A stretch of 32,000 bases of DNA, from positions 1,230,001 to 1,262,000 of the forward strand of contig OY969425.1 of assembly GCA_963699255.1 (NCBI GenBank), in the 5' to 3' direction. Of this stretch, positions 12,847 to 30,836 are shown piece by piece. Source of the stretch: an uncultured bacterium (GTDB lineage: Bacteria > Margulisbacteria > WOR-1 > CAVSGV01). Both the position numbers and the translations under genes were made by a program. Each line of letters opens with the position of its first letter. Position 1 is the first letter of the stretch. Under the pieces are notes generated by a model. The model was not told where the DNA came from, did no database searches, and saw only the letters and a program-made list of their open reading frames with translations.

Positions 12847-12946
12847 TGGAATTTTGGATTTGGGTCATTGGAATTTGTTTGGTAATTGGAAATTGGAAAT
12901 TGGTCATTCTTGCGTAGCAAGCGCTGGGTTGTTCGTGACTTGTTAA
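12847..12946. repeat. AT-rich simple-repeat element with a short GC hairpin (probable divergent relative of the 2267/4061 elements)
   Basis: GGAATTTTGGATTTGGGTCATTGGAATTTG...GGTAATTGGAAATTGGAAATTGGTCATT, then CTTGCgtaGCAAG (12909-12921). It shares the 11-mer TTGGGTCATTG with the reverse complement of 2267-2373. Confidence 0.45.
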
Positions 12947-13061
12947 AGATCTATAGACTATCTTCTCTGATTAAGTTCGGAGAATCCTTTTAGTACTATT
13001 TAACTTTAACTTGACGGCAACCCAGTTTTTTATTCTGTAAAGATATCTTATCACATATCCT

Positions 13062-13093
13062 CAAAAAAATCAAGAAGGCATTCTAAGTCTTGA
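13062..13093 (-). terminator. Weak candidate intrinsic terminator downstream of giant gene A
   Basis: On the minus strand: TCAAGA-12 nt-TCTTGA hairpin (13093-13070) followed directly by T7 (13068-13062). The stem is short and AT-rich. Confidence 0.3.
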
Positions 13094-13126
13094 GATTCAA
13101 ATGATTTTTCAACTCATCCCTTGTCC

Positions 13127-16100
13127 CTACTTAGCTTCCAGCTTATCCAGACGGGCTTTCAGCTCTTCATTGATCTTCTTCTGTTCATCGATCTGCCTTT
13201 GCTGCTCTTTTACCGCTTCAACAAGTATGGGTATTAACGTATCGGTATAAAGTGTGGTAGCATAAACTCTATCTTTTCCGTCCTTGCCTGTATAATGATT
13301 CTCGAGTTTTGTACTATCATCATATTTTACCGCTTCCGGCACTTGCTCTCCCACATCTTCGGCGATAAAACCAAGTGTATGCCCGCCGCCATGTTTTTCA
13401 TCCCAATCAAAAGAAACTCCTCTAAGGTTAAGTATCTTATCCAGGGCATCTTTTATTCCCACAACGTTCTTCTTCCATCTTATTGATGAACCTTTCCCGT
13501 AAGTACCGTGGACAGCATAAAAATCGCTACCTGGACTTTCAGCATATACACCATAAGCACTGCCGTAACCATAAGTACCAACATAGCCTACGCCATAGAC
13601 ACCCGCACTCCAGTTAGTATAGTCAGTATTCATACCGCTAACACCGCAGCCATTTGCCCCATGACCTATACCCAAGACACCGGTGCCCAATTTTCCGTTT
13701 TCGCCGATGATGGTTTCCGCTCCTTCGCGATAAGCATAGATGCAACGCCCGGTCTGATAAATGGCGGTTCCACTCCCGCTCAGCCCCGTTCCCATTACAG
13801 TTATTTGAGACTGCGGATTCGTCGTCCCGATACCGACATTGCCGTTATTATCAATGACCATTGATGTATTTGTAATACCAGTAGTGTAGTTATTTGAGGT
13901 TCCAAACATCAATTTTGAACCGCTATTATCAAAATAGGCAGCGATCCTGGCGTTTGGATTAGATCCAGAGCTGTACAGGAAATCTATAGGTGTATAACGT
14001 CCAGCGGTATAAGCACCGCTCAAAGAAAGCATACCTCTTGTTGCACCGGTAAATGTTGAAATTTGACTTCCTTCTACATTTAGTTTGGATGCCGGATTTG
14101 TCGTCCCGATGCCGACATTGCCGTTGTTTAGAATTGTTACTCTATCCGAATAATTATCTATATTGCCTTGCGAACTCAGTGTGCGCAAATAAAGATTACC
14201 GCCTGAAGAACCTCCCCAATCGATCACGCCGTTAGCAGAATTATAAACTAAATGGGTCCCGGAAAGCCGAACATTACCGGCAACATCTAATTTAGTTCCT
14301 GGACCAGTCGTACCGATGCCGACATTGCCGCCTGAAACAAACAAATCATTTGTGTCAACTTTTAAACCGCTTGAGTTCAAATAATACCCCGTGCCGGAAC
14401 ATGCGGTAGCTGTCGCTGATAAAATAGCATAATTTGCGCGTACAGAACACACGGTCGATGTTCCACTCAAATCTGCATAGTTAGCATCCCTCGCGTGACC
14501 CGTACATATGGAAGCTACCGATGATAATATTGCGTAATTTGCCTGCTTGGTACACAGGGTCGATATTCCACTAAGATCCGCATAGTTAGCATCTTTCGCA
14601 TGACCGGTACTGCAATCGCTGGCTGTCGCTGCTAATAATGCGTATGTCGCCTGCTTCGTACACATGGTCGATGTCCCGCTCAATGCCGCATAGTTAGCAT
14701 CTTTCGCATGGCCGGTACTGCAATCGCTGGCTGTCGCTGCTAATAATGCGTATGTCGCCTGCTTCGTACACATGGTCGATGTCCCGCTCAATGCCGCATA
14801 GCTCGCACTATTCGCACTGCCTGTACAGACACTCGATGTGCCTGATAAAGCTGCATATGGCGCTGATCCTGTACAGCTGGATGATGTTCCACTCAATGCC
14901 GCATAGCTCGCGCTATTCGCACTGCCTGTACATATACTTGATATCCCTGATAGGTTTGCATACTTGACTGATCCAGTACATGCCGATGATATCCCGCTAA
15001 GATCCGCGTACTTTACTGATCCTGTACAGGCACTGGATGTTCCTGATAACTCCGCATACTTTACAGATCCGGTACAGCTGGATGCTGTTCCACTCAATGC
15101 CGCATAGCTCGCGCTATTCGCGCTGCCCGTACATATACTTGATATCCCTGATAGTGTTGCATATATAGCATTAGTGCTCGTGGTCGATGTCCCGCTTAAT
15201 ACTGCGTAGCTGACGGTTCCTGTACACCTGGACGATGTTCCGCTTAGATCTGCATACTTTACAGAGCCGGTACAAGTGGATGCGGTTCCACTCAATACTG
15301 CATAATTAACAGTCCCTGTACATGTAGATGCGGTTCCACTCAATACTGCATAATTAACAGTCCCTGTACATGTAGATGCGGTTCCACTTAATACTGAATA
15401 GTTGGAAGTATTCGCGCTACCCGTACAAACACTCGATATCCCTGATAGTGTTGCATAGGAAACCGATCCAGTACAGCTGGATGATGTTCCACTCAATACC
15501 GCGTAGTTAACGGTCCCGGTACACATGGATGCTGTCCCGCTCAACACAGAGTAGTTGGAAGTATTCGCGCTACCCGTACAAACACTTGATGTCCCAGATA
15601 GATTTGCATAAATAGCATTAGTGCTGGTGGTAGATGTCCCGCTCAATACAGCGTAGTTGGATGTGTTCGCATTGCCTGTACAGACACTGGATGCCCCTGA
15701 CAGTGCCGCATAATTGGTTGATCCTGTACAGACAGATGCTGTTCCACTCAATGCTGCATAGTTGGATGTATTAGCGCTACCTGTACACACACTTGATGTC
15801 CCTGACAGTGCCGCATAATTGGTTGATCCGGTACAAATAGATGCTGTCCCGCTCAATGCTGCATAGTTCGCACTATTCGCACTGCCTGTACATACACTTG
15901 ATATCCCTGATAAATTTGCATACTTGGTTGATCCGGTACAAGTGGATGCGGTTCCACTCAATACTGCATAGTTAACAGTCCCGGTACAAGTAGATGCTGT
16001 TCCGCTCAACACAGAGTAGTTCGATGTATTAGCATTACCTGTGCATACACTTGATATACCTGATAGAGCTGCATAATTAGTTGATCCAGTACAGACAGAT

Positions 16101-18199
16101 GCTGTTCCACTCAATACCGCATAATTAACGGTCCCGGTACACATGGATGCGGTCCCACTTAATACTGAATAGTTGGAAGTATTCGCGCTACCCGTACAAA
16201 CACTTGATGTCCCAGATAGATTTGCATAAATAGCATTAGTGCTGGTGGTAGATGTCCCGCTCAATACCGCGTAATTGACGGTCCCTGTACACAGGGATGC
16301 GGTCCCGCTCAACACAGAGTAATTCGATGTATTCGCGTTGCCTGTGCATACACTGGATGTACCTGATAGCGCTGCATAAGTGACAGGCCCTGTACAACTG
16401 GATGCCGTTCCACTCAATACTGCATAGTTTGATGTATTCGCATTTCCTGTACACACACTTGATGTCCCTGACAGTGCCGCATAATTGGTTGATCCGGTAC
16501 AAATAGATGCTGTCCCGCTCAATGCTGCATAGTTCGCACTATTCGCACTGCCTGTACATACACTTGATATCCCTGATAAATTTGCATACTTGGTTGATCC
16601 GGTACAAGTGGATGCGGTTCCACTCAATACTGCATAGTTAACAGTCCCGGTACAAGTAGATGCTGTTCCGCTCAACACAGAGTAGTTCGATGTATTAGCA
16701 TTACCTGTGCATACACTTGATATACCTGATAGAGCTGCATAATTAGTTGATCCAGTACAGACAGATGCTGTTCCACTCAATACCGCATAATTAACGGTCC
16801 CGGTACACATGGATGCGGTCCCACTTAATACTGAATAGTTGGAAGTATTCGCGCTACCCGTACAAACACTTGATGTCCCAGATAGATTTGCATAAATAGC
16901 ATTAGTGCTGGTGGTCGACGTTCCACTCAATGCTGCATAGTTGGATGTATTCGCACTGCCTGTGCATACACTTGATATACCTGATAGTGCTGCATAATTG
17001 GTTGATCCGGTACAAATGGATGCTGTTCCACTCAATACAGCATAGTTGGATGTATTAGCGCTACCTGTACACACACTTGATGTCCCTGACAGTGCCGCAT
17101 AATTGGTTGATCCTGTACAGACAGATGCTGTTCCACTCAATGCTGCATACTTTACTGATCCCGTACAGACAGATGCTGTTCCGCTCAACACAGAGTAGTT
17201 CGATGTATTAGCATTACCTGTGCACACACTGGATATACCTGATAGAGCTGCATAATTAGTTGATCCGGTACAGCTTGATGCTGTTCCACTTAATGCTGCA
17301 TAGTTGGATGTACTCGCGCTACCTGTACATATACTGGATATACCTGATAGATTTGCATAAGTGACAGACCCTGTACAACTGGATGCTGTTCCACTCAATA
17401 CTGCATACTTTACTGATCCCGTACATGCGGATGATGTTCCGCTTAACACTGCATAGTTAACAGTCCCTGTACAGGCTGATGCTGTCCCACTCAATACCGC
17501 ATAGTTTGATGTATTCGCACTGCCTGTGCATACACTTGATATCCCCGATAAAGCTGCATACTTTACCGATCCCGTACACGCGGATGATGTTCCGCTCAAT
17601 GTCGCATAGTTCGCGGTTACTGATACTGATGTGGAGGTCACATTGATAAGCGCCGAGCCATCTCCGTAATATTTACCTGTCGACCCCTCTATGGATGCTC
17701 CCATAGCTCCCACCTTAAGATTCCCTGTTATATTGGCGTTTGCCGTCTGCGCTTCCGTTGTGTTCATGATGTACCTTAGATCCGCATCTCCCTCTGAGAT
17801 ACCTCCTCCGCCTCCACCCATCCCCGATTCTGATGATATCGCCCTGAACGCGTACGGTGCCGCCGCCAGCAGCTGGTGCGGCGTCATGTCTTCTCCCCCA
17901 ACGTTCAGCCCGATCTCATATTGATTGCTGAAATCTACGCTAGTGGGAATAGGACCCAGCATTTCATTGATGTTCCCCTGACTGTCAGGAGTAACCGTTG
18001 ATGTCTGCGACCACAGCGATGTCCCGCTGGATGAATCGTACAGCGTGAAGATTATCACCTTGGGGTCTGTGATAGGCAGGCCGCTTGTTTTGTCCAGTAA
18101 CCTACCTTGAAAATATATGGTGCGGGGGATAGCTGCAAGAACGGAGAAAGATAATATCGTCAGGAAAACAAAGAAAAAGAAAAACACCTTTTTTTGCAT
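13127..18199 (-). CDS. Giant secreted repeat protein A (1690 aa): conserved N-terminal module, about 63 single-Cys repeats, GNVGIGTT joints, C-terminal Peptidase_S74-like chaperone tip
   Basis: 5.07-kb uninterrupted ORF. GGAGG RBS. Sec-type signal peptide (MQKKVFFFFFVFLTILSFSVLA|A). The C-terminus SSIRWKKNVVGIKDALDKILNLRGVSFDW...GFIAEDVGEQVPEAV...coiled-coil matches the intramolecular-chaperone auto-processing domain of endosialidase/tail-fibre proteins. Confidence 0.88.
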   Translation of the reverse strand: MQKKVFFFFFVFLTILSFSVLAAIPRTIYFQGRLLDKTSGLPITDPKVIIFTLYDSSSGTSLWSQTSTVTPDSQGNINEMLGPIPTSVDFSNQYEIGLNVGGEDMTPHQLLAAAPYAFRAISSESGMGGGGGGISEGDADLRYIMNTTEAQTANANITGNLKVGAMGASIEGSTGKYYGDGSALINVTSTSVSVTANYATLSGTSSACTGSVKYAALSGISSVCTGSANTSNYAVLSGTASACTGTVNYAVLSGTSSACTGSVKYAVLSGTASSCTGSVTYANLSGISSICTGSASTSNYAALSGTASSCTGSTNYAALSGISSVCTGNANTSNYSVLSGTASVCTGSVKYAALSGTASVCTGSTNYAALSGTSSVCTGSANTSNYAVLSGTASICTGSTNYAALSGISSVCTGSANTSNYAALSGTSTTSTNAIYANLSGTSSVCTGSANTSNYSVLSGTASMCTGTVNYAVLSGTASVCTGSTNYAALSGISSVCTGNANTSNYSVLSGTASTCTGTVNYAVLSGTASTCTGSTKYANLSGISSVCTGSANSANYAALSGTASICTGSTNYAALSGTSSVCTGNANTSNYAVLSGTASSCTGPVTYAALSGTSSVCTGNANTSNYSVLSGTASLCTGTVNYAVLSGTSTTSTNAIYANLSGTSSVCTGSANTSNYSVLSGTASMCTGTVNYAVLSGTASVCTGSTNYAALSGISSVCTGNANTSNYSVLSGTASTCTGTVNYAVLSGTASTCTGSTKYANLSGISSVCTGSANSANYAALSGTASICTGSTNYAALSGTSSVCTGSANTSNYAALSGTASVCTGSTNYAALSGASSVCTGNANTSNYAVLSGTSTTSTNAIYANLSGTSSVCTGSANTSNYSVLSGTASMCTGTVNYAVLSGTSSSCTGSVSYATLSGISSVCTGSANTSNYSVLSGTASTCTGTVNYAVLSGTASTCTGTVNYAVLSGTASTCTGSVKYADLSGTSSRCTGTVSYAVLSGTSTTSTNAIYATLSGISSICTGSANSASYAALSGTASSCTGSVKYAELSGTSSACTGSVKYADLSGISSACTGSVKYANLSGISSICTGSANSASYAALSGTSSSCTGSAPYAALSGTSSVCTGSANSASYAALSGTSTMCTKQATYALLAATASDCSTGHAKDANYAALSGTSTMCTKQATYALLAATASDCSTGHAKDANYADLSGISTLCTKQANYAILSSVASICTGHARDANYADLSGTSTVCSVRANYAILSATATACSGTGYYLNSSGLKVDTNDLFVSGGNVGIGTTGPGTKLDVAGNVRLSGTHLVYNSANGVIDWGGSSGGNLYLRTLSSQGNIDNYSDRVTILNNGNVGIGTTNPASKLNVEGSQISTFTGATRGMLSLSGAYTAGRYTPIDFLYSSGSNPNARIAAYFDNSGSKLMFGTSNNYTTGITNTSMVIDNNGNVGIGTTNPQSQITVMGTGLSGSGTAIYQTGRCIYAYREGAETIIGENGKLGTGVLGIGHGANGCGVSGMNTDYTNWSAGVYGVGYVGTYGYGSAYGVYAESPGSDFYAVHGTYGKGSSIRWKKNVVGIKDALDKILNLRGVSFDWDEKHGGGHTLGFIAEDVGEQVPEAVKYDDSTKLENHYTGKDGKDRVYATTLYTDTLIPILVEAVKEQQRQIDEQKKINEELKARLDKLEAK
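13130..13489 (-). other. Peptidase_S74-like intramolecular chaperone (auto-processing) domain of giant A
   Basis: It shows the S-x-R-x-K-x-N...L..L..V.F.W...GFIA(E/Q).V....PE.V pattern, ending in a heptad-like DEQKKINEELKARLDKLEAK. Recognised from memory of the family; not verified by HMM. Confidence 0.7.
14387..17608 (-). repeat. In-frame tandem array of about 63 units of 48/57 nt (16/19 aa) in giant A
   Basis: Units counted by hand from the translation: YAxLSG[T/I]xSxCTG plus a 3-aa or 6-aa linker. Four Cys-less 15-aa units (YAVLSGTSTTSTNAI). Confidence 0.9.
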
Positions 18200-18260
18200 A
18201 ATAACCCTCCTGTGAATATCATGAATATCAATGGATTCCTTACTTGATCCCTAGCGGTAC

Positions 18261-18288
18261 ATTATATTATATAGGTGCGGAATTACAA
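18261..18288 (-). promoter_or_regulatory. Promoter copy 1 (giant A): TTGTAA-16-TATAAT
   Basis: Minus strand: -35 TTGTAA (18288-18283) and -10 TATAAT (18266-18261). The about 55-nt 5'UTR contains the tandem TGATATTCA x2 (18230-18213) and a GGAGG RBS. Near-identical copies lie upstream of giants B and C. Confidence 0.6.
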
Positions 18289-18361
18289 ATGACTAATTTC
18301 ATGCTTAAAGTATAACTGAAAAGATTTTCGCTAATTACCCCTGGACTAAATCCCTTTATAT

Positions 18362-19355
18362 TTACGGATTCCAAATATCGCTTGAAGAGGACCAGACATC
18401 GTGAAGATAACTCCCCCCCATTACCCACATCTTATTCTTATAAACAACTGAACCAAGGCCATCACGGGCTGCCCAGCCGGCGGCGGCAGTTGCCTGGGTC
18501 CATGTAATTCCGTCAGTAGAATACCAGACATCATTCCTCTCCCATTGTCCAACAACATTCCCGTATCCCCCCATCACCCACATTTTATTATCAAAGACCT
18601 GTGCGGTGTGCCACGCCCGTCCCGGCCAGTTGGCAGCAGCTGTTACCTGTCATCCAGGTAACGCCGTCTGAAGATGACCATACATCGTTCCGATAGCCGG
18701 TACTAAGCCCCCCATACCCACCTCCAAGCAGCCACATTTTATTGTTAAAGACCAATGATCTGCTCCCCTCACGGTTGTACCATTCAACAGAGGTTTCCGG
18801 TTTCCAAGTAACACCGTCCGTAGAGGACCAGACAGGATTAGTTTGGGCGGTTGAATGGTCCGTCATCATCCACATTTTATTATTAAAAACCAATACTGAA
18901 GGACCTTGCATTAGTCCCCAACCGGCAGCAGCTGTTACCTGTGTCCAGGTAACGCCGTCCGAAGAAGACCAGACATCGTTCAAAGCTTTCGTGTTAGAAT
19001 CATATCCTCCCAATACCCACATTTTGTTGTTAAAGACCACCGCAGCGAAGTTAGTTCGGGCTGTCCAACCGGCAGCAGCTGTTGCCTGTGTCCAGGTAAT
19101 GCCGTCTGAAGATGACCATACATCGCTCTTGTAGTTAGAACTACCAACACGCCCACCGATCACCCACATTTTATTGTTAAACACCAATGTGGAAAAACTT
19201 TCGCGGCCTGGCCAGCCGGCGGCAGAAGTTACCTGAGTCCAGGTGGATCCGGCTGCGGCAAATACCGTTCTTGCTACAAGAAGTTGGAAAAGAAAGAGCA
19301 AAAACAATATTAAGATGTGAGATGAGAAATGAGAGATGAGAGTGGGTTTTCGCAT
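18362..19355 (-). pseudogene. Secreted six-blade Kelch-type beta-propeller protein, interrupted by a 1-nt frameshift near 18651-18653
   Basis: ORFs 18591..19376 and 18362..18583 carry the same about 47-aa repeat (DVWSSSDG[VI]TWTQ.TAAAGW.....VFNNKMWV.GG). Intact blades read ...acctgtGTccagg, while blade 5 reads ...acctgtCATccagg (one extra nt). The likely start is the ATG at 19355 (GAGG RBS, signal peptide). This could be a real pseudogene or a sequencing error. Confidence 0.75.
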
Positions 19356-19384
19356 CCCATACCTCACACTTTGCATCTCTTGTT

Positions 19385-22300
19385 TTACTTTCCTTTCTTT
19401 TTATCTTGCACAGGAACCAGCGGAGGAATATCCGCGCGCACGGCTTCAACTCTCCAGTAGAATTTCTGGGAGGGGTTTCCGTCGGAGGTGGTGCTGACTG
19501 TAAATTTGCAGTTCTCGATCTTGCCTGCAACATAGAGCGGGGAATATCCGTCCACACAGGTCAGCTGGACAGTTCGCCCTTCTTTTCTGGTGAGGGCTTC
19601 AAAATATTCCGGCAGCTGTATTTCTTTCTTTGAACCGGACAGTTGGTCCTCACCCCGATAAAAGACCGCGTGTTCCGGACCCTCCAATGCGCCGTGAACT
19701 AATGTTTTGTTTTTCGGATCCAGCGGGTCAGGTATCTCAAAGTTCTTGTAGGTCGCGGCAAATCCGCCGGCAACCTGAAGCGTGTATTGTGGATTTGTCG
19801 TCCCGATGCCGACGTTGCCGCCTACAAAATAAGAATTACCGGAACGATTCAAAACAAATTTATCAACACCAGTTTGACCAATGGTAAGGCCACCTAGACC
19901 ATCGTAAACCATTTCATAATAGTTGGTGCCGCCATCAGTCAAACGAATACCATATCCGTAATTAGCTCCTGACCCGTTGACAGTTAGCTTCGCTCCCGGA
20001 CTCGTCGTCCCGATGGCCACGCGGCCGCTGTTGTAGTAAATATCACTTCCGCTCGTGCCCCATTGACCTGAAGGCCAAGAAGTTCTAGGAACCCCGCCAA
20101 GGGTAAGACCGTTTGTGTCAATTTTAACTGTGCCAGTGGTATTTGCACAGTTACTCGCAATTCTACACAGATCCGCATAGTTCGCGTCCCTCGCATGACC
20201 CGTACATGTGCTAGCTACCGATGATAATATTGCGTAATTTGCCTGCTTGGTACACAAGGTCGATATCCCGCTCAATACTGCATAGTTCGAGTCATTTGCA
20301 TGACCCGTACATGTGGTAGCTACTGATGATAATAACGCGTATGTTGCCTGCTTGGTACACAAGGTCGATATCCCGCTCAATACTGCATAGTTCGAGTCAT
20401 TTGCATGACCCGTACATGTGGTAGCTACTGATGATAATAACGCGTATGTTGCCTGCCTGGTACACATGGTAGATGTTCCACTCAGATCTGCATAGTTTGC
20501 ACTCTTAGCATTACCTGTACAGACACTTGATATCCCTGATAGGGCCGCATACGGTGCTGATCCTGTACATACAGATGCTATGCCACTCAACGCCGCATAG
20601 TTCGCACTCTTCGCACTACCTGTACAGACACTTGATATCCCTGATAGGGCCGCATACGGTGCTGATCCTGTACATACAGATGCTATGCCACTCAACGCCG
20701 CATAGTTCGCACTCGTCGCATTACCTGTACAGACACTTGATATCCCTGATAGGGCTGCATACGGCGCTGATCCACTACAGCTGGATGCTATTCCACTAAG
20801 ATTTGCATAGTTCGCACTCGTCGCATTACCTGTACAGACACTTGATATCCCTGATAGGGCTGCATACGGCGCTGATCCACTACAGCTGGATGCTATTCCA
20901 CTAAGATTTGCATAGTTCGCACTCTTCGCGCTACCCGTACAAATACTTGATATTCCTGACAGTGCTGCATACGGCGCTGATCCACTACAGCTGGAGGCTG
21001 TTCCACTCAATGCCGCATAGTTCGCGCTATTCGCGCTGCCTGTACATATACTTGATATCCCTGATAGTGTTGCATATATAGCATTAGTGCTCGTGGTCGA
21101 TGTCCCGCTCAATACTGCGTAGCTGACGGTTCCTGTACACCTGGACGATGTTCCGCTTAGATCTGCATACTTTACAGAGCCGGTACAAGTGGATGCGGTT
21201 CCACTCAATACTGCATAGTTAACAGTCCCGGTACAAGTAGATGCTGTTCCGCTTAACACTGCATAATTAACAGATCCCGTACAAGTGGATGCGGTCCCAC
21301 TTAATACTGAATAGTTGGAAGTATTCGCATTACCTGTACATACACTTGATATTCCTGATAGTGCTGCATACGGCGCTGATCCTGTACATATAGATGCTGT
21401 TCCACTCAATGCGGCATAGTTCGCACTATTCGCACTGCCTGTGCATACACTTGATGTCCCAGATAGATCCGCATACTTAGTCGATCCTGTGCAGACAGAT
21501 GCGGTCCCACTCAATACCGCATAATTGGATGTATTTGCACTACCTGTACAAATGCTTGATGTGCCTGATAGTGTTGCATACGGCGCTGATCCGGTACATA
21601 CAGATGCTGTTCCGCTCAATGCGGCATAGTTCGCACTATTCGCACTGCCTGTACAAATGCTTGATGTCCCTGATAGTGTTGCATAAACAGCATTAGTGCT
21701 GGTGGTCGATGTGCCACTCAATACTGCGTAGCCAGCTGTTTTAGCATTGCCTGAACATGTACTTGATATCCCAGACAGATCCGCATACTTAGTCGATCCT
21801 GTACAGACAGATGCGGTCCCACTTAATACTGAATAGTTGGAAGTATTCGCATTACCTGTACATACACTGGATGTCCCTGATAGTGCTGCATACTTGGTTG
21901 ATCCGGTACAGCTTGATGCTGTCCCGCTCAATACTGCATAGTTTGATGTATTCGCATTTCCTGTACAGACACTTGATGTCCCCGATAGATTTGCATAAAT
22001 AGCATTAGTGCTGGTGGTCGACGTCCCGCTCAATACCGCATAGTTGGATGTATTAGCATTACCTGTGCAGACACTTGATGTACCTGATAGTGTTGCATAA
22101 GGGACAGATCCTGTACATGTAGATGCTGTTCCACTCAATACCGCGTAATTGACGGTCCCTGTACACAGGGATGCGGTCCCGCTCAACACAGAGTAATTCG
22201 ATGTATTCGCGTTGCCTGTGCATACACTGGATGTACCTGATAGTGCTGCATACTTGGTTGATCCGGTACAGCTTGATGCTGTCCCGCTCAATACTGCATA

Positions 22301-24430
22301 GTTTGATGTATTCGCGCTACCCGTACAAACACTTGATGTCCCAGATAGTGTTGCATAAATAGCATTAGTGCTGGTGGTCGATGTACCACTCAATACTGCG
22401 TAGCCAGCTGTTTTAGCATTACCTGTGCAGACACTGGATGTCCCCGATAGATCCGCATACTTAGTCGATCCTGTACAGACAGATGCTGTTCCACTCAATA
22501 CTGCATAGTTAACAGTCCCGGTACACAGGGATGATGTCCCGCTCAACGCAGAGTAGTTTGATGTATTCGCATTTCCTGTACAGACACTTGATGTCCCTGA
22601 CAGTGCCGCATAATTGGTTGATCCCGTACAGACAGATGCTGTGCCGCTCAACACAGAGTAGTTCGATGTATTAGCATTACCTGTGCACACACTGGATATA
22701 CCTGATAGTGCTGCATAAATAGCATTAGTGCTGGTGGTCGATGTACCACTCAATACTGCGTAGCCAGCTGTTTTAGCATTACCTGTGCAGACACTGGATG
22801 TCCCCGATAGATCCGCATACTTAGTCGATCCTGTACATGTGGATGCTGTTCCACTCAATACTGCATAGTTAACAGTCCCGGTACACAGGGATGATGTCCC
22901 GCTCAACGCAGAGTAGTTTGATGTATTCGCATTTCCTGTACAGACACTTGATGTCCCTGACAGTGCCGCATAATTGGTTGATCCCGTACAGACAGATGCT
23001 GTGCCGCTCAACACAGAGTAGTTGGATGTATTAGCATTACCTGTGCACACACTGGATATACCTGATAGTGCTGCATAAATAGCATTAGTGCTGGTGGTCG
23101 ATGTCCCGCTCAATACCGCATAATTGACAGTCCCTGTACACAGGGATGCGGTCCCGCTCAACACAGAGTAATTCGATGTATTCGCACTGCCTGTGCATAC
23201 ACTGGATGTACCTGATAGTGTTGCATAAGGGACAGATCCTGTACAAATAGATGCTGTCCCACTCAACGCAGAGTAGTTTGATGTATTCGCATTTCCTGTA
23301 CAGACACTTGATATACCTGACAGTGCTGCATAATTGGTTGATCCGGTACAAATAGATGCTGTTCCACTCAATGCTGCATACTTTACTGATCCCGTACAGA
23401 CAGATGCTGTTCCGCTCAACACAGAGTAGTTCGATGTATTAGCATTACCTGTGCACACACTGGATATACCTGATAGAGCTGCATAATTAGTTGATCCGGT
23501 ACAGCTTGATGCTGTTCCACTTAATGCTGCATAGTTGGATGTACTCGCGCTACCTGTACATATACTGGATATACCTGATAGATTTGCATAAGTGACAGAC
23601 CCTGTACAACTGGATGCTGTTCCACTCAATACTGCATACTTTACTGATCCCGTACATGCGGATGATGTTCCGCTTAACACTGCATAGTTAACAGTCCCTG
23701 TACAGGCTGATGCTGTCCCACTCAATACCGCATAGTTTGATGTATTCGCACTGCCTGTGCATACACTTGATATCCCCGATAAAGCTGCATACTTTACCGA
23801 TCCCGTACACGCGGATGATGTTCCGCTCAATGTCGCATAGTTCGCGGTTACTGATACTGATGTGGAGGTCACATTGATAAGCGCCGAGCCATCTCCGTAA
23901 TATTTACCTGTCGACCCCTCTATGGATGCTCCCATAGCTCCCACCTTAAGATTCCCTGTTATATTGGCGTTTGCCGTTTGCGCTTCCGTTGTGTTCATGA
24001 TGTACCTTAGATCCGCATCTCCCTCTGAGATACCTCCTCCTCCTCCACCCATCCCCGATTCTGATGATATCGCCCTGAACGCGTACGGTGCCGCCGCCAG
24101 CAGCTGGTGCGGCGTCATGTCTTCTCCTCCAACGTTCAGCCCGATCTCATACTGATTGCTGAAATCTACGCTAGTGGGAATAGGACCCAGCATTTCATTG
24201 ATGTTCCCCTGACTGTCAGGAGTAACCGTTGATGTCTGCGACCACAGCGATGTCCCGCTGGATGAATCGTACAGCGTGAAGATTATCACCTTGGGGTCTG
24301 TGATAGGCAGGCCGCTTGTTTTGTCCAGTAACCTACCTTGAAAATATATGGTGCGGGGGATAGCTGCAAGAACGGAGAAAGATAATATCGTCAGGAAAAC
24401 AAAGAAAAAGAAAAACACCTTTTTTTGCAT
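19385..24430 (-). CDS. Giant secreted repeat protein B (1681 aa): same N-terminal module, about 72 single-Cys repeats, distinct C-terminal 'FEIPDPLDP...YFEAL' tip
   Basis: 5.05-kb uninterrupted ORF. The first about 359 aa are identical to giant A in the supplied translations. After the array come two GxVxIGTT joints and then a unique about 118-aa terminal domain. Confidence 0.88.
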   Translation of the reverse strand: MQKKVFFFFFVFLTILSFSVLAAIPRTIYFQGRLLDKTSGLPITDPKVIIFTLYDSSSGTSLWSQTSTVTPDSQGNINEMLGPIPTSVDFSNQYEIGLNVGGEDMTPHQLLAAAPYAFRAISSESGMGGGGGGISEGDADLRYIMNTTEAQTANANITGNLKVGAMGASIEGSTGKYYGDGSALINVTSTSVSVTANYATLSGTSSACTGSVKYAALSGISSVCTGSANTSNYAVLSGTASACTGTVNYAVLSGTSSACTGSVKYAVLSGTASSCTGSVTYANLSGISSICTGSASTSNYAALSGTASSCTGSTNYAALSGISSVCTGNANTSNYSVLSGTASVCTGSVKYAALSGTASICTGSTNYAALSGISSVCTGNANTSNYSALSGTASICTGSVPYATLSGTSSVCTGSANTSNYSVLSGTASLCTGTVNYAVLSGTSTTSTNAIYAALSGISSVCTGNANTSNYSVLSGTASVCTGSTNYAALSGTSSVCTGNANTSNYSALSGTSSLCTGTVNYAVLSGTASTCTGSTKYADLSGTSSVCTGNAKTAGYAVLSGTSTTSTNAIYAALSGISSVCTGNANTSNYSVLSGTASVCTGSTNYAALSGTSSVCTGNANTSNYSALSGTSSLCTGTVNYAVLSGTASVCTGSTKYADLSGTSSVCTGNAKTAGYAVLSGTSTTSTNAIYATLSGTSSVCTGSANTSNYAVLSGTASSCTGSTKYAALSGTSSVCTGNANTSNYSVLSGTASLCTGTVNYAVLSGTASTCTGSVPYATLSGTSSVCTGNANTSNYAVLSGTSTTSTNAIYANLSGTSSVCTGNANTSNYAVLSGTASSCTGSTKYAALSGTSSVCTGNANTSNYSVLSGTASVCTGSTKYADLSGISSTCSGNAKTAGYAVLSGTSTTSTNAVYATLSGTSSICTGSANSANYAALSGTASVCTGSAPYATLSGTSSICTGSANTSNYAVLSGTASVCTGSTKYADLSGTSSVCTGSANSANYAALSGTASICTGSAPYAALSGISSVCTGNANTSNYSVLSGTASTCTGSVNYAVLSGTASTCTGTVNYAVLSGTASTCTGSVKYADLSGTSSRCTGTVSYAVLSGTSTTSTNAIYATLSGISSICTGSANSANYAALSGTASSCSGSAPYAALSGISSICTGSAKSANYANLSGIASSCSGSAPYAALSGISSVCTGNATSANYANLSGIASSCSGSAPYAALSGISSVCTGNATSANYAALSGIASVCTGSAPYAALSGISSVCTGSAKSANYAALSGIASVCTGSAPYAALSGISSVCTGNAKSANYADLSGTSTMCTRQATYALLSSVATTCTGHANDSNYAVLSGISTLCTKQATYALLSSVATTCTGHANDSNYAVLSGISTLCTKQANYAILSSVASTCTGHARDANYADLCRIASNCANTTGTVKIDTNGLTLGGVPRTSWPSGQWGTSGSDIYYNSGRVAIGTTSPGAKLTVNGSGANYGYGIRLTDGGTNYYEMVYDGLGGLTIGQTGVDKFVLNRSGNSYFVGGNVGIGTTNPQYTLQVAGGFAATYKNFEIPDPLDPKNKTLVHGALEGPEHAVFYRGEDQLSGSKKEIQLPEYFEALTRKEGRTVQLTCVDGYSPLYVAGKIENCKFTVSTTSDGNPSQKFYWRVEAVRADIPPLVPVQDKKKGK
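19388..19741 (-). other. C-terminal tip domain of giant B (uncharacterised family; FEIPDPLDPKNKTLVHGALEGPEHAVFYRG...LPEYFEAL...)
   Basis: I recall the F-x-I-x-[HD]-P-L-D-P...E-[GS]-P...Y-[RN]-G...LP-[DE]-YFEAL pattern from the C-termini of fibre-like hypothetical proteins in other bacteria. No named family can be assigned without an HMM search. Confidence 0.45.
20132..23839 (-). repeat. In-frame tandem array of about 72 units (16/19 aa) in giant B
   Basis: Same unit consensus. Six Cys-less units. Contains 360-bp, 105-bp and 108-bp higher-order tandem duplications. Confidence 0.9.
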
Positions 24431-24491
24431 AATAACCCTCCTGTGAATATCATGAATATCAATGGATTCCTTACTTGATCCCTAGCGGTAC

Positions 24492-24519
24492 ATTATATTA
24501 TATATATGTGGAATTACAA
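24492..24519 (-). promoter_or_regulatory. Promoter copy 2 (giant B): TTGTAA-16-TATAAT
   Basis: -35 at 24519-24514 and -10 at 24497-24492. The 5'UTR direct repeat is at 24444-24461. Homology with copy 3 extends upstream to about 24553. Confidence 0.6.
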
Positions 24520-24750
24520 TAGACTTTTGGCTCAAAGAAAATAATAAAAACTGTGGGGAAATAATGGTAACCTAGAAGGTTATACATGTCACTAACACAA
24601 TAATAACGATAGGGGGAAATGATTTATTGCTGATGCTATCACTTTTCCCCATGATCTACCATCAAATATCAGTTAAACAGCCACCGCCAGAATGTGTGAG
24701 AGCTATCGCAAGGTATAAGGTGTGTTGACTATGATCCTTATCCCTTGGTT

Positions 24751-24814
24751 CTATTTCGCCTCCAGCTTATCCAGACGGGCTTTCAGCTCTTCATTAACCG
24801 TCTTCTGTTCATCA
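24751..24814 (-). pseudogene. Relic of an S74-type gene 3' end (encodes ...DEQKTVNEELKARLDKLEAK*), stranded downstream of giant C
   Basis: CTATTTCGCCTCCAGCTTATCCAGACGGGCTTTCAGCTCTTCATTAACCGTCTTCTGTTCATC aligns with 13127-13190, the last 20 codons plus stop of giant A. It lies 30 nt beyond the giant C stop codon. Confidence 0.85.
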
Positions 24815-24843
24815 CAAGCAATTCAATTAAATTCTGAAATTCA

Positions 24844-27800
24844 CTAATATTCCACAAGCACAAATCCTTGCGTGCCATTGCCGGCATTATGTTGATAGCC
24901 GCCGGAACCGCCGCCACCGTAGCCATAGGCAGCAGTAACGCTACCATCCTCAAAGTAGAAGCCGCCACCACCAAAAGCGCTTCCGCCGCCTCTACTTGTA
25001 TTTGCGCCGCAAGTATCCTGTCCTCTCCCGCCATTAACGCCGCCGGTACAGTTAGTGCATGTGCCACCATTACCGCCATGGCCACCGTTGCCGCCGGTAT
25101 AGCCGGAGTAGCCAGCGCTACCGCCACCAGCCACATAACTCCCAAAAGATGAATCACCGCCGGGATTCCCCCACTCAGTAGCGCCAAGTTGACCGCCGGT
25201 GCCACCCTGGCCAACACCTACCGAAATACTTGCTCCGGGAGTTACACTCACACTTTCTGCTATAACAGCGGCCCCGCCGCCGCCACCGCCACCGTAATAG
25301 TTGCGGCCTGTGCCGCCGCCACCACCACCACCGCACATTGTAACCCATACTGTTTTCACTCCACTGGGTACAGTGAATGTTCCGCCAGATATGAAACGCT
25401 GTTTGCCGTGTGAAGAAATAAGTGTGCCATTATTATAGATTCCACCTGATGCATTTATCGCTCCGCCCTGAACATCTACTTTATATCCTGGATTCGTCGT
25501 CCCGATTCCGACATTGCCAACAGAATCTATGACCATTGATGTATTTGTAATACCAGTAGTGTAGTTATTTGAGGTTCCAAACATCAATTTTGAACCGCTA
25601 TTATCAAAATAGGCAGCGATCCTGGCGTTTGGATTAGATCCAGAGCTGTACAGGAAATCTATAGGTGTATAACGTCCAGCGGTATAAGCACCGCTCAAAG
25701 AAAGCATACCTCTTGTTGCACCGGTAAATGTTGAAATTTGACTTCCTTCTACATTTAGTTTGGATGCCGGATTTGTCGTCCCGATGCCGACATTGCCGTT
25801 GTTTAGAATTGTTACTCTATCCGAATAATTATCTATATTGCCTTGCGAACTCAGTGTGCGCAAATAAAGATTACCACCTGAAGAACCTCCCCAATCGATC
25901 ACGCCGTTAGCAGAATTATAAACTAAATGGGTCCCGGAAAGCCGAACATTACCGGCAACATCTAATTTAGTTCCTGGACCAGTCGTACCGATGCCGACAT
26001 TGCCGCCTGAAACAAACAAATCATTTGTGTCAACTTTTAAACCGCTTGAGTTCAAATAATACCCGGTGCCGGAACATGCGGTAGCTGTCGCTGATAAAAT
26101 AGCATAATTTGCGCGTACAGAACACACTGTCGATGTTCCACTCAAATCTGCATAGTTAGCATCCCTCGCGTGACCCGTACATATGGAAGCTACCGATGAT
26201 AATATTGCGTAATTTGCCTGCTTGGTACACAGGGTCGATGTCCCGCTCAATGCCGCATAGTTAGCATCTTTCGCATGACCGGTACTGCAATCGCTGGCTG
26301 TCGCTGCTAATAATGCGTATGTCGCCTGCTTCGTACACATGGTCGATGTCCCGCTCAATGCCGCATAACTCGCACTATTCGCACTGCCTGTACAGACACT
26401 CGATGTGCCTGATAAAGCTGCATATGGCGCTGATCCTGTACAGCTGGATGATGTTCCACTCAATGCCGCATAGCTCGCGCTATTCGCACTGCCTGTACAT
26501 ATACTTGATATCCCTGATAGGTTTGCATACTTGACTGATCCAGTACATGCCGATGATATCCCGCTAAGATCCGCGTACTTTACTGATCCTGTACAGGCAC
26601 TGGATGTTCCTGATAACTCCGCATACTTTACAGATCCGGTACAGGCGGATGATGTTCCACTCAATGCCGCATAGCTCGCGCTGTTCGCACTGCCTGTACA
26701 TATACTTGATATCCCTGATAGTGTTGCATATATAGCATTAGTGCTCGTGGTCGATGTCCCGCTTAATACTGCGTAGCTGACGGATCCTGTACACCTGGAC
26801 GATGTTCCGCTTAATGTCGAATAAGAAACAGCCCCAGTACAGCTGGATGATGTTCCACTCAATACTGCATAGTTAACAGTCCCGGTACAAGTAGATGCTG
26901 TTCCGCTTAACACTGAATAATTAACAGATCCCGTACAAGTGGATGCGGTCCCACTTAATACTGAATAGTTGGAAGTATTCGCGCTACCCGTACAAACACT
27001 TGATATCCCTGATAGTGTTGCATAGGAAACCGATCCAGTACATGTGGATGCTGTTCCACTCAATACCGCATAATTAACGGTCCCGGTACACATGGATGCT
27101 GTCCCGCTCAACACAGAGTAGTTGGAAGTATTCGCGCTACCCGTACAAATGCTTGATGTCCCTGATAGTGTTGCATATATAGAATTAGTGCTGGTGGTCG
27201 ATGTCCCGCTTAATACCGCATAGTTAACAGTCCCTGTACACATGGATGCTGTTCCACTTAACACTGCATAGTTGGCACTATTCGCACTGCCTGTACAAAT
27301 GCTTGATGTCCCTGATAGTGTTGCATAAACAGCATTAGTGCTGGTGGTCGATGTGCCACTCAATACTGCGTAGCCAGCTGTTTTAGCATTGCCTGAACAT
27401 GTACTTGATATCCCAGACAGATCCGCATACTTAGTCGATCCTGTGCAGACAGATGCGGTCCCACTCAATACCGCATAATTGGATGTATTTGCACTACCTG
27501 TACAAATGCTTGATGTGCCTGATAGTGTTGCATAAATAGAATTAGTGCTGGAGGTTGATGTCCCGCTCAATACCGCATAGTTAACAGTCCCTGTACACAT
27601 GGATGCTGTTCCGCTTAACACTGAATAATTAACAGATCCCGTACAAGTGGATGCTGTCCCACTCAACACAGAGTAGTTGGATGTATTAGCGCTACCTGTA
27701 CAGACGCTTGATATACCTGATAGTGCTGCATAATTGGTTGATCCGGTACAGACAGATGCTGTTCCACTCAATGCTGCATAGTTGGATGTATTAGCGCTGC

Positions 27801-29400
27801 CTGTGCATACACTTGATATCCCTGATAAATTTGCATACTTGGTTGATCCGGTACAAACAGATGCGCTCCCACTCAATACCGCATAATTGGAAGTATTCGC
27901 ATTGCCTGTACACACACTTGATATACCTGATAGTGCTGCATAATTGGTTGATCCGGTACAGCTTGATGCTGTCCCACTCAACGCAGAGTAGTTGGATGTA
28001 TTAGCGCTGCCTGTGCACACACTTGATATCCCTGATAAATTTGCATACTTGGTTGATCCGGTACAAATAGATGCTGTTCCACTCAATGCTGCATAGTTGA
28101 CGGTCCCGGTACATATAGATGCTGTCCCACTCAACACAGAGTAGTTCGATGTATTAGCGCTGCCTGTGCATACACTTGATATACCTGATAAAGCTGCATA
28201 ATTGGTTGATCCGGTACAAATGGATGCTGTTCCACTCAATGTGGCATAGTTCGCACTATTCGCACTGCCTGTGCACACACTTGATGTCCCTGACAGTGCC
28301 GCATAATTGGTTGATCCGGTACAAATAGATGCTGTTCCACTCAATGCTGCATACTTTACTGATCCCGTACAGACAGATGCTGTTCCGCTCAACACAGAGT
28401 AGTTCGATGTATTAGCATTACCTGTGCACACACTGGATATACCTGATAGAGCTGCATAATTAGTTGATCCGGTACAGCTTGATGCTGTTCCACTTAATGC
28501 TGCATAGTTGGATGTACTCGCGCTACCTGTACATATACTGGATATACCTGATAGATTTGCATAAGTGACAGACCCTGTACAACTGGATGCTGTTCCACTC
28601 AATACTGCATACTTTACTGATCCCGTACATGCGGATGATGTTCCGCTTAACACTGCATAGTTAACAGTCCCTGTACAGGCTGATGCTGTCCCACTCAATA
28701 CCGCATAGTTTGATGTATTCGCACTGCCTGTGCATACACTTGATATCCCCGATAAAGCTGCATACTTTACCGATCCCGTACACGCGGATGATGTTCCGCT
28801 CAATGTCGCATAGTTCGCGGTTACTGATACTGATGTGGAGGTCACATTGATAAGCGCCGAGCCATCTCCGTAATATTTACCTGTCGACCCCTCTATGGAT
28901 GCTCCCATAGCTCCCACCTTAAGATTCCCTGTTATATTGGCGTTTGCCGTCTGCGCTTCCGTTGTGTTCATGATGTACCTTTGGTCCGCATTCCCTTGGG
29001 CGATACCTCCTCCTCCTCCCATCCCCGATTCTGATGATATCGCCCTGAACGCGTACGGTGCCGCCGCCAGCAGCTGGTGCGGCGTCATGTCTTCTCCCCC
29101 AACGTTCAGCCCGATCTCATATTGATTGCTGAAATCTACGCTCGTGGGAATGGGACCCAGCATTTCATTGATGTTCCCCTGACTGTCAGGAGTAACCGTT
29201 GATGTCTGCGACCACAGCGATGTCCCGCTGGATGAATCGTACAGCGTGAAGATTATCACCTTGGGGTCTGTGATAGGCAGGCCGCTTGTTTTGTCCAGTA
29301 ACCTACCTTGAAAATATATGGTGCGGGGGATAGCTGCAAGAACGGAGAAAGATAATATCGTCAGGAAAACAAAGAAAAAGAAAAACACCTTTTTTTGCAT
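24844..29400 (-). CDS. Giant secreted repeat protein C (1518 aa): same N-terminal module, about 54 single-Cys repeats, same pre-tip region as A, glycine-rich tail-fibre-type tip
   Basis: 4.56-kb uninterrupted ORF. The N-terminus is identical to A and B except for a short patch (GMGGGGGIAQGNADQRY). The C-terminus RFISGGTFTVPSGVKTVWVTMCGGGGGGG...VSVTPGASISVGVGQGG...GFVLVEY matches the glycine-rich domain seen at phage tail-fibre C-termini. Confidence 0.88.
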   Translation of the reverse strand: MQKKVFFFFFVFLTILSFSVLAAIPRTIYFQGRLLDKTSGLPITDPKVIIFTLYDSSSGTSLWSQTSTVTPDSQGNINEMLGPIPTSVDFSNQYEIGLNVGGEDMTPHQLLAAAPYAFRAISSESGMGGGGGIAQGNADQRYIMNTTEAQTANANITGNLKVGAMGASIEGSTGKYYGDGSALINVTSTSVSVTANYATLSGTSSACTGSVKYAALSGISSVCTGSANTSNYAVLSGTASACTGTVNYAVLSGTSSACTGSVKYAVLSGTASSCTGSVTYANLSGISSICTGSASTSNYAALSGTASSCTGSTNYAALSGISSVCTGNANTSNYSVLSGTASVCTGSVKYAALSGTASICTGSTNYAALSGTSSVCTGSANSANYATLSGTASICTGSTNYAALSGISSVCTGSANTSNYSVLSGTASICTGTVNYAALSGTASICTGSTKYANLSGISSVCTGSANTSNYSALSGTASSCTGSTNYAALSGISSVCTGNANTSNYAVLSGSASVCTGSTKYANLSGISSVCTGSANTSNYAALSGTASVCTGSTNYAALSGISSVCTGSANTSNYSVLSGTASTCTGSVNYSVLSGTASMCTGTVNYAVLSGTSTSSTNSIYATLSGTSSICTGSANTSNYAVLSGTASVCTGSTKYADLSGISSTCSGNAKTAGYAVLSGTSTTSTNAVYATLSGTSSICTGSANSANYAVLSGTASMCTGTVNYAVLSGTSTTSTNSIYATLSGTSSICTGSANTSNYSVLSGTASMCTGTVNYAVLSGTASTCTGSVSYATLSGISSVCTGSANTSNYSVLSGTASTCTGSVNYSVLSGTASTCTGTVNYAVLSGTSSSCTGAVSYSTLSGTSSRCTGSVSYAVLSGTSTTSTNAIYATLSGISSICTGSANSASYAALSGTSSACTGSVKYAELSGTSSACTGSVKYADLSGISSACTGSVKYANLSGISSICTGSANSASYAALSGTSSSCTGSAPYAALSGTSSVCTGSANSASYAALSGTSTMCTKQATYALLAATASDCSTGHAKDANYAALSGTSTLCTKQANYAILSSVASICTGHARDANYADLSGTSTVCSVRANYAILSATATACSGTGYYLNSSGLKVDTNDLFVSGGNVGIGTTGPGTKLDVAGNVRLSGTHLVYNSANGVIDWGGSSGGNLYLRTLSSQGNIDNYSDRVTILNNGNVGIGTTNPASKLNVEGSQISTFTGATRGMLSLSGAYTAGRYTPIDFLYSSGSNPNARIAAYFDNSGSKLMFGTSNNYTTGITNTSMVIDSVGNVGIGTTNPGYKVDVQGGAINASGGIYNNGTLISSHGKQRFISGGTFTVPSGVKTVWVTMCGGGGGGGTGRNYYGGGGGGGAAVIAESVSVTPGASISVGVGQGGTGGQLGATEWGNPGGDSSFGSYVAGGGSAGYSGYTGGNGGHGGNGGTCTNCTGGVNGGRGQDTCGANTSRGGGSAFGGGGFYFEDGSVTAAYGYGGGGSGGYQHNAGNGTQGFVLVEY
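24847..25398 (-). other. Glycine-rich C-terminal tip domain of giant C
   Basis: G-x-F-T-V-P-x-G-V...V-x-x-x-G-G-G-G-G-G...V-T-P-G...V-G-x-G-G pattern, recognised from memory of 'glycine-rich domain-containing' tail-fibre proteins. Not verified by HMM. Confidence 0.6.
26061..28812 (-). repeat. In-frame tandem array of about 54 units (16/19 aa) in giant C
   Basis: Same unit consensus. Four Cys-less units (STSSTNSI / STTSTNAV / STTSTNSI / STTSTNAI variants). Confidence 0.9.
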
Positions 29401-29461
29401 AATAACCCCCTGTGAATATCATGAATATCAATGGATTCCTTACTTGATCCCTATGCGGTAC

Positions 29462-29489
29462 ATTATATTATATATATGTGGAATTACAA
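29462..29489 (-). promoter_or_regulatory. Promoter copy 3 (giant C): TTGTAA-16-TATAAT
   Basis: -35 at 29489-29484 and -10 at 29467-29462. The 5'UTR direct repeat is at 29413-29430. The RBS variant is GGGGG rather than GGAGGG. Confidence 0.6.
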
Positions 29490-29570
29490 TAGACTTTTGG
29501 CTCAAAGAAAATAATAAAAACTGTGGGGGGAAAATAAGGAAGAAGATGTCTTTGCTTGTCATAAACAAAA

Positions 29571-30633: not shown

Positions 30634-30836
30634 TTGCTCCCCCCTAAAAACCGAAAAGAACATTGCCACCTCTAGCTTTGTTCTTTTCTTGCAGATGGCT
30701 GCCCCGCTTTCCGGGGCCTTACACTTATATAATCGGGTTATGGGGGATCAAACTTGCATGAATTTCATGGAATATAGAGAGGGATTCTATTGATAAAAAC
30801 AGGAAAAAATGAAAAAAACGCAGAACTAGAGAAGGG

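Follow-up and report, generated by a model that had tools for sequence, protein, structure and literature searches.

Three tandem genes for predicted MAT-like surface fibres with a common base, a Cys-repeat stalk and three phage-type tips in an uncultured WOR-1 bacterium

The closest described systems to the proteins studied here are the mosaic adhesive trimer (MAT) fibres of the predator Bdellovibrio bacteriovorus. For HD100, 21 proteins with a signal peptide were described as trimeric fibres carrying S74 or non-S74 tips (Caulton et al. 2024, PMC10769870). The N-domain of the MATs is conserved, beta-rich, about 130 aa long and without a PDB homologue, its envelope partner was still to be identified, and one member, Bd2133, measured 142 Å for 370 residues (PMC10769870). 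Further members were listed in the FCB group, Omnitrophica and other lineages in the same study (PMC10769870). In this work, a 32,000-nt stretch of an uncultured Margulisbacteria (WOR-1) genome (contig OY969425.1, positions 1,230,001 to 1,262,000; hereafter the window) was analyzed, and three large genes in it, designated A, B and C, were compared with these fibres. The most probable reading, at a rough probability of 0.75, was that the three genes encode MAT-like cell-surface fibre adhesins. The design itself is already published as the MAT superfamily, including members outside Bdellovibrio, and what is new here is the Cys-repeat stalk.

The three co-oriented giant genes claimed in a preliminary description of the locus were recovered as intact open reading frames (ORFs), all on the minus strand, and the coding-strand order was gene C, gene B, a frameshifted kelch gene and gene A. 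Each fibre protein was divided into six parts, namely signal peptide, N-domain, a Gly run with a module, stalk, neck and tip. The coordinates obtained from the ORFs and from parsing of the repeat units were as follows.

24844-29400, minus strand: gene C, fibre protein of 1518 aa
Parts of gene C: signal peptide 29332-29400; N-domain 29026-29331; linker and "GDGSALINV" module 28804-29025; stalk of 54 units 26038-28803; neck with three capping loops 25489-26037; Gly-rich tip 24847-25488
19385-24430, minus strand: gene B, fibre protein of 1681 aa
Parts of gene B: signal peptide 24362-24430; N-domain 24056-24361; stalk of 72 units 20126-23830; a neck of its own 19790-20125; phage-type tail-fibre C-terminal tip 19388-19789
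13127-18199, minus strand: gene A, fibre protein of 1690 aa
Parts of gene A: signal peptide 18131-18199; N-domain 17825-18130; stalk of 63 units 14363-17599; neck 13814-14362; tip 13130-13813

The same classical Sec signal peptide, read from the sequence as MQKKVFFFFFVFLTILSFSVLA followed by AIPRT, was present in all three proteins. A and B were identical over exactly 359 aa, and the four DNA differences in their first 1077 nt were all synonymous. Protein C agreed with A over 132 aa; about 10 aa then differed, one residue being deleted, before a further 216 aa of identity. Both the shared Sec signal peptide with its N-terminal module and the single short patch setting C apart had been claimed before, and both were confirmed. 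The near-identical 5' kilobase points to a recent duplication or gene conversion of the part of the genes that encodes the base. The N-domain occupied residues 24 to about 125 (~100 aa) directly after the signal peptide and was modeled by AlphaFold2 as a beta-sandwich, with pLDDT >93 for residues 1-95. It was followed by a Gly run and then by the module, which ended in KYYGDGSALINV.

The link to the Bdellovibrio fibres was carried mainly by the neck. GNVGIGTT loops were counted three times in A, three times in C and once in B, which also had a second, degenerate copy (RVAIGTTSP) further upstream, and in all three proteins the tip began directly after the last loop. The GNVGIGTTNP "joint" noticed earlier proved to be the capping-loop motif of the MAT fibres (Supplementary Fig. 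18 alignment of PMC10769870: Bd2133 NVGIGATAPTAKLE, Bd0884 AVGIGTTNPSGILH). In phmmer searches against PDB, the neck of A and C matched Bd2133 (8OND, E=4.2e-7) and Bd1334 (8ON4, 4.6e-5; 8OML, 1.1e-4), a match to Bd3182 was also obtained (8OJN, E=6.7e-3), and B gave only a weak match (E=0.079). At the sequence level, these matches showed that the neck, with its predicted beta-helix segments and GNVGIGTTNPxxKL capping loops, is homologous to the solved Bdellovibrio fibres, and the likeness suggested in the preliminary description was in this way found in the proteins themselves. Its picture of one repeat stalk and one joint followed by unrelated tips was correct as far as it went; A and C, however, also shared the whole neck (~180 aa) and the distal stalk, while the neck of B was its own.

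The overall layout agreed with that of the Bdellovibrio MATs in the signal peptide, the position directly after it of a predicted beta-rich N-domain, the predicted long fibre, the beta-helix with NVGIGTTxPxxKL capping loops and the tip, which is an S74 chaperone in some proteins and a non-S74 domain in others. Both systems also have multiple paralogues in one genome, with one end shared and the other end different. Differently from a typical MAT, these fibres were 1.5-1.7 times longer and consisted mostly of a Cys-containing repeat of 15/16/19 aa, the three genes lay side by side with homogenised 5' ends, the tips of B and C were domains outside the six structurally characterised MAT tips, and the host was not Bdellovibrio and had neighbouring genes of the type IX secretion system (T9SS) type. 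Trimeric autotransporter adhesins (YadA, BoaA, CbpF) are also long, repeat-built adhesive fibres on Gram-negative cells, but have a C-terminal beta-barrel translocator and the opposite polarity, whereas the conserved end was the N terminus here. Assignment of the three fibres to the trimeric autotransporters was rejected, with no match to YadA_anchor, YadA_head or YadA_stalk at E<=0.1.

The N-domain was then considered as a family. Against PDB it had no match at E<=1e-3, as was described for the MAT N-domain. Among 1.84 billion representatives, relatives were found in 5704 clusters (E<=1e-3), and the domain always stood directly after a signal peptide. The survey of relatives and tips foreseen in the preliminary description gave 64 long relatives, with S74 in 9 (terminal), YadA_head in 5, collagen in 2 and a C-type lectin domain in 1; two matched a grass antifreeze beta-roll family, and several contained Bd2133-like segments. 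Relatives occurred in 78 GTDB genomes spread over many phyla, where 2-6 such genes often stood in tandem, and were seen in Nitrospirota, Geobacter, Betaproteobacteria, Ignavibacteria, Zixibacteria, Elusimicrobia and others. The GTDB genome scan with the first 400 aa gave no relative, and no close relative was present among the GTDB representative genomes. No protein was recovered when the N-terminal 203 aa were used in a word-indexed search, and all proteins returned with the N-domain profile or a Bd2133 fragment were <200 aa. Judged from its domain matches, the family of this candidate MAT N-domain shows tip mosaicism of the same repertoire as the published MATs and would fit the MAT definition.

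Two close relatives extended this picture. The metagenome contig L080, from another sample, encoded an N-domain 76% identical to that of the window, preceded by the same upstream genes, together with a further fibre gene whose tip was of a fourth type and resembled that of the protein P0001 (850 aa, N-domain 50% identical). On these same-N-domain fibres (L080 21-683, plus strand; P0001), the fourth tip type ended in ...VVIVSDGANWQIISKG. As a fourth tip was found in close relatives, the tip pool of the lineage is larger than the three of the window. In addition, a 2469-aa ORF was observed at 12902-20308 (plus strand) of locus L002, from the metagenome-assembled genome MFD01476.bin.2.44. It had a homologous N-domain and a related repeat with alternating Cys and non-Cys units, which was interrupted four times by a "ISGKHYGDGSALTGI" module. 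YadA-head-like repeats came next, together with several "GIRFPDGSFQTTAG" modules resembling Bd2133; by its sequence make-up, this ORF is an extreme mosaic relative.

The three tips were unrelated to each other, and each was matched to a phage tail-fibre domain. The S74 chaperone at the end of A was located as follows.

13325-13489, minus strand: Peptidase_S74 domain in the tip of A, with the Ser1572 codon at 13484-13486 and the Lys1577 codon at 13469-13471

The claimed Peptidase_S74 end of A was found by profile search (PF13884, 46.4 bits versus a cut-off of 22), with positions 1-58 of the 58-position profile aligned to residues 1571-1625. Ser1572 and Lys1577 were spaced as in the SDxxxK motif, the actual motif being SSIRWK; a Gly/Tyr-rich segment preceded Ser1572 and a helical C-terminal tail followed the domain. 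The S74 region alone had no match in PDB. S74 is an intramolecular chaperone that drives trimerisation and then cleaves itself. The tip of A shared the full-length S74 domain, the catalytic Ser and Lys and the helical tail with phage S74 fibres and tailspikes such as the K1F endosialidase and the T5 L-shaped tail fibre, and it also had the capping-loop motif ahead of S74. Unlike those proteins, A had a Sec signal peptide, a cellular N-domain, no phage context and Ser for Asp in the motif. For C, the expected Gly-rich tail-fibre domain was supported by phrog_6202 (tail fibre, 1.1e-10) and by the fibre of cyanophage Pam3 (7YFW, 7YPX), to whose end about 180 residues of the tip aligned, including the terminal G..G.QG.(I/V)(I/L)V(Q/E)Y. 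The likeness to Pam3 was weak (7YFW, E=0.005) and compositionally biased, and the domain is placed here on a cellular fibre. The FEIPDPLDP domain at the end of B, which had been called uncharacterised, turned out to be the domain with which phage tail-fibre and minor-tail proteins end at the C terminus. It matched phrog_28536 and phrog_17490, and tblastn placed it at the C-terminal end of tail-fibre-like or minor-tail proteins of Flavobacterium, Arthrobacter and Synechococcus phages (44 phage records). By these matches, all three tips are assigned to phage receptor-binding-type ends.

The comparison of A and C revealed how such tips were exchanged. The sequences concerned were the following.

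13814-13843, minus strand: third capping-loop block GNVGIGTTNP of A, the 5' recombination joint, with its counterparts at 19790-19819 (B) and 25489-25518 (C)
24761-24813, minus strand: 3'-terminal relic of an S74-type tip, 50/53 nt identical (94%) to the end of gene A

Upstream of the third loop block, 140 nt were 100% identical between A and C, and the identity collapsed within or just after the block. The relic lay about 30 nt 3' of the stop codon of gene C and would encode ...DEQKTVNEELKARLDKLEAK*, including the stop codon. Its exact core of 35 nt occurred in the window only at 13137-13171 and 24761-24795, with 0 occurrences expected by chance. Because of the sharp identity breakpoint and the S74 3' end left behind gene C, these comparisons showed that C is, in its sequence history, a former S74-type gene whose tip was replaced by a Gly-rich cassette, with the capping-loop sequence serving as the upstream joint. 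Shared blocks and repeats in the locus extended over hundreds to thousands of bases at 92-100% identity, which excluded chance as the source of the likeness. The idea of interchangeable tips received direct support from the recombination scar and the breakpoint.

The stalk made up 60-73% of each protein and was rich in Thr, Ser, Gly and Cys. Its units were of 15, 16 or 19 aa with the consensus YAxLSGT[AS]SxCTG, and every unit except those of 15 aa contained one Cys. For the stalk DNA, Tandem Repeats Finder gave a base period of 105 nt and, above it, higher-order periods ranging over 153-360 nt. In 171 units, Tyr1 and Leu4 were invariant and Ser5 was present in 167, while the codons at conserved positions were mixed, with Leu encoded by TTR and CTN and Ser by AGY and TCN. 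This synonymous codon diversity at invariant positions shows that the stalk is a repeat under purifying selection and not merely the product of a recent amplification. At E<=0.1, neither Pfam nor NCBIfam contained a family for it, the one exception being a marginal EsV_1_7_cys match in distal His-containing units, and no match was obtained among PDB chains, including the solved MAT fragments, among ice-binding families in the Pfam scan, or in phage genomes by tblastn. The earlier statement that the common long stalk has no described family was consistent with these searches, and on this basis the Cys-repeat stalk appears to be of a type not described before. It was rare but not unique, being also present in P0001 and, among YadA-like and Bd2133-like modules, in the 2469-aa ORF of L002. 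An AlphaFold2 model of the stalk monomer, built with an alignment of its own repeats, was all-beta with two short strands per unit, and its best fold matches, which were non-significant, were YadA-like heads and CbpF.

The last units of each stalk differed in character from the rest (CTKQATYALL...CTGHAxDxNYA) and were located as follows.

About 14363-14800, minus strand: distal stalk units of A (units 56-63)
About 20126-20500, minus strand: distal stalk units of B (units 66-72)
About 26038-26370, minus strand: distal stalk units of C (units 49-54)

They displayed a C-x15/16-C-x2-H spacing, the marginal EsV_1_7_cys match reached 27.3 bits on B, and from their sequence these units may form a metal site or an adaptor between stalk and neck. 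Separately, a fibre-like ORF with the Cys-free repeats TSTYANTSNYAxVAGTST was observed at about 4701-5300 (plus strand) of locus L086, an 83-kb viral contig in IMG/VR (UViG_3300013286_000010). The resemblance of this viral repeat to the stalk unit was weak, and it may be a distant phage cousin.

Each fibre gene was preceded by its own copy of a promoter-like region and 5' untranslated region (5'UTR), in agreement with the preliminary description.

29401-29528, minus strand: promoter-like region and 5'UTR of gene C, with TTGTAA-16-TATAAT at 29489-29462 and tandem TGATATTCA at 29413-29430
24431-24558, minus strand: copy of this region for gene B
18200-18295, minus strand: copy of this region for gene A

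About 95 nt were common to A, B and C, and about 128 nt were common to B and C. The shared stretch contained TTGTAA-16-TATAAT and an AGGAGG ribosome-binding site, and the hexamers lay at the same offset in each copy. The region was kept, with substitutions, in L080, which identifies it as a real regulatory region. Each fibre gene had a perfect tandem direct repeat, TGATATTCA TGATATTCA, after the promoter-like hexamers and before the ribosome-binding site (18213-18230, 24444-24461 and 29413-29430, minus strand), and the repeat occurred in the window only at these three places. This repeat could be an operator; it was partly kept in L080.

The genes around the array were those of a cell. On its 3' side, ilvD, ilvB, ilvN, ilvC, dxr, thrS, infC and rplT followed as housekeeping genes, and on its 5' side lay the two genes listed here.

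29626-30669, minus strand: PorV/PorQ-family outer-membrane beta-barrel gene (NF033709, 102.6 bits versus a cut-off of 90)
30837-31736, minus strand: secreted 299-aa protein with a T9SS type-A sorting (FlgD_ig) C-terminal domain (profile match)

These housekeeping and T9SS-type neighbours place the locus in a cellular chromosome. Scans of the window for Rfam families and tRNAs found nothing. A kelch beta-propeller gene with a signal peptide, lying between genes B and A at about 18330-19376 (minus strand), was broken by a +1 frameshift near 18620, and its repeats ran on in the other frame (...QVTAAANWPGRAW...KMWVMGG...); the break reflects either a pseudogene or a sequencing error. In a collection of 15 billion proteins, no exact sequence was found for the three fibre proteins, the PorV-like protein or the kelch ORF, while the neighbouring housekeeping proteins were present.

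Taken together with the published fibres, these results suggested a working scheme for the three proteins. Each fibre would be exported by the Sec pathway through its classical signal peptide, and the beta-sandwich N-domain (~100 aa) would retain it on the cell envelope, by analogy with the Bdellovibrio MATs. The chain would then fold into a long, probably trimeric fibre, in which the 54-72 units of the Cys-bearing beta-repeat would set the reach, estimated at about 60 nm when scaled from the dimensions of Bd2133. Further out, a neck of beta-helix segments bounded by capping loops would lead to the distal tip, where binding is expected. In tip A, following established S74 biology, the chaperone would trimerise the fibre and then cut itself at Ser1572, exposing the Gly/Tyr-rich segment; tips B and C, as two other phage tail-fibre tip domains, presumably recognise different ligands. 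Within the array, the 5' ends would be kept near-identical by recent duplication or gene conversion, and new tips are acquired by recombination at the capping-loop sequence, as the breakpoint and the leftover S74 end show. In this manner, one anchor and one stalk would display three binding specificities.

Other explanations were weighed against this reading. The fibres could be remnants of a prophage, a tailocin or another phage-derived particle, that is, true tail fibres docking on a baseplate and not on a cell, an origin to which all three tips, as phage tail-fibre domains, and the Cys-free repeat of similar flavour (YANTSNYAxVAGTST) in the fibre-like ORF of one IMG/VR contig would be suited. 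However, no phage structural, replication or lysis genes were found in the 32-kb window, where the array is flanked by ilvDBNC, dxr, thrS, infC, rplT and the T9SS-type genes, and Sec signal peptides would be needless for virion proteins assembled in the cytoplasm. Neither the 50,697 phage genomes searched nor, with two peptide patterns, the 2.9 million viral contigs of IMG/VR yielded a match to the N-domain, and the stalk was equally absent from phage genomes by tblastn. A phage origin is accordingly regarded as extremely improbable, and the earlier view of a cellular system without other phage genes nearby agreed with the housekeeping flanks, the Sec signal peptides and the lack of N-domain matches in the phage genomes searched. 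It is also very unlikely that the triplication, or the unit counts of the stalks, arose as an assembly artefact from one or two repeat-rich genes. Near-identical blocks of 1.1 kb and tandem repeats of 105 nt are hard to assemble, the neighbouring kelch gene is frameshifted, and the exact fibre proteins are missing from the public protein collection; but the flanks and the tip were unique to each copy, the stalk units were ordered differently in each, and the copies were also told apart by copy-specific synonymous changes and by a small indel patch. The S74 relic downstream of gene C is a scar of biological origin and not a misjoin, the contig L080 repeated the order of sorting-domain protein, PorV-like gene and fibre gene and added a further fibre gene with its fourth tip, and the length of the source contig (1.77 Mb) suggests a long-read or finished assembly. 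An artefact is thus unlikely for the triplication, and the stalk unit counts are less secure.

A mainly structural, non-adhesive role was also considered unlikely, in which the fibres would form a spacer or coat layer, a biofilm matrix, or ice- or mineral-binding beta-solenoids, with the tips acting only as folding or trimerisation caps. The size of the stalk and the purifying selection on it would fit such a role, as would its Thr/Ser/Gly/Cys-rich composition, which resembles that of some ice-binding solenoids, the two N-domain relatives that match the grass antifreeze beta-roll family, and the observation that deletions of single MAT genes barely affect predation by Bdellovibrio. Yet the stalk itself did not match ice-binding families, one Bdellovibrio MAT tip binds prey glycans, and three different tips of the phage receptor-binding type were kept and swapped on otherwise homogenised genes, which argues for the tip as the selected variable part. 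Several points weigh against the reading of the genes as MAT-like adhesins. The S74 motif of tip A has Ser in place of the consensus Asp. The stalk monomer model was of low confidence (mean pLDDT 62) with non-significant fold matches, and the stalk was therefore left without a fold assignment. The exact fibre proteins were missing from the protein collection, and public annotation may thus treat them differently.

The neighbouring genes also bear on how the fibres might be held on the cell. The PorV-like gene lay directly upstream of the array, and, besides the window, 6/82 related loci had a PorV-like gene no more than 10 kb from an N-domain fibre gene. The order of the sorting-domain protein, the PorV-like gene and the fibre gene was the same in the close relative L080 and in the distant L028. 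The neighbour with the T9SS C-terminal domain (CTD) was also present in L080, L028, L018, L032, L002, L012, L051, L081 and L082, and, with L054 and L056 added, these were the loci in which PorV-like and/or T9SS-CTD neighbours recurred, several of them in metagenome-assembled genomes unrelated to each other. The fibres themselves were rejected as T9SS cargo: no CTD match (TIGR04183 or related) was obtained for any of them in NCBIfam or Pfam, whereas the neighbour at 30837-31736 has such a domain. From this synteny, the PorV-like barrel, possibly together with the T9SS-CTD protein, is put forward tentatively as an envelope partner that docks or displays the N-domain, a proposal that we rate as rather unlikely. 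It is weakened by the PorV-like gene having its own terminator-like hairpin (29588-29574), which was kept in L080, and by the fact that most N-domain loci, e.g. in Geobacter and Betaproteobacteria, have no PorV-like gene nearby. As a part of the same proposal, the Cys-ladder stalk would be a new trimeric fibre fold. If the proposal is true, the PorV-like partner would be a candidate for the missing envelope anchor of MAT-type fibres.

If the N-domain described here is the MAT N-domain, the design of one anchor with many phage-type tips is suggested to be a general system of cellular surface fibres. The locus gives an unusually clean picture of tip exchange, with the breakpoint at the capping-loop codons and the S74 3' end left behind gene C. 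It also adds a selected, Cys-containing stalk repeat of 16/19 residues that is without structural or family annotation. Catalogues of such tips could help to predict the cells or surfaces to which uncultured bacteria attach.

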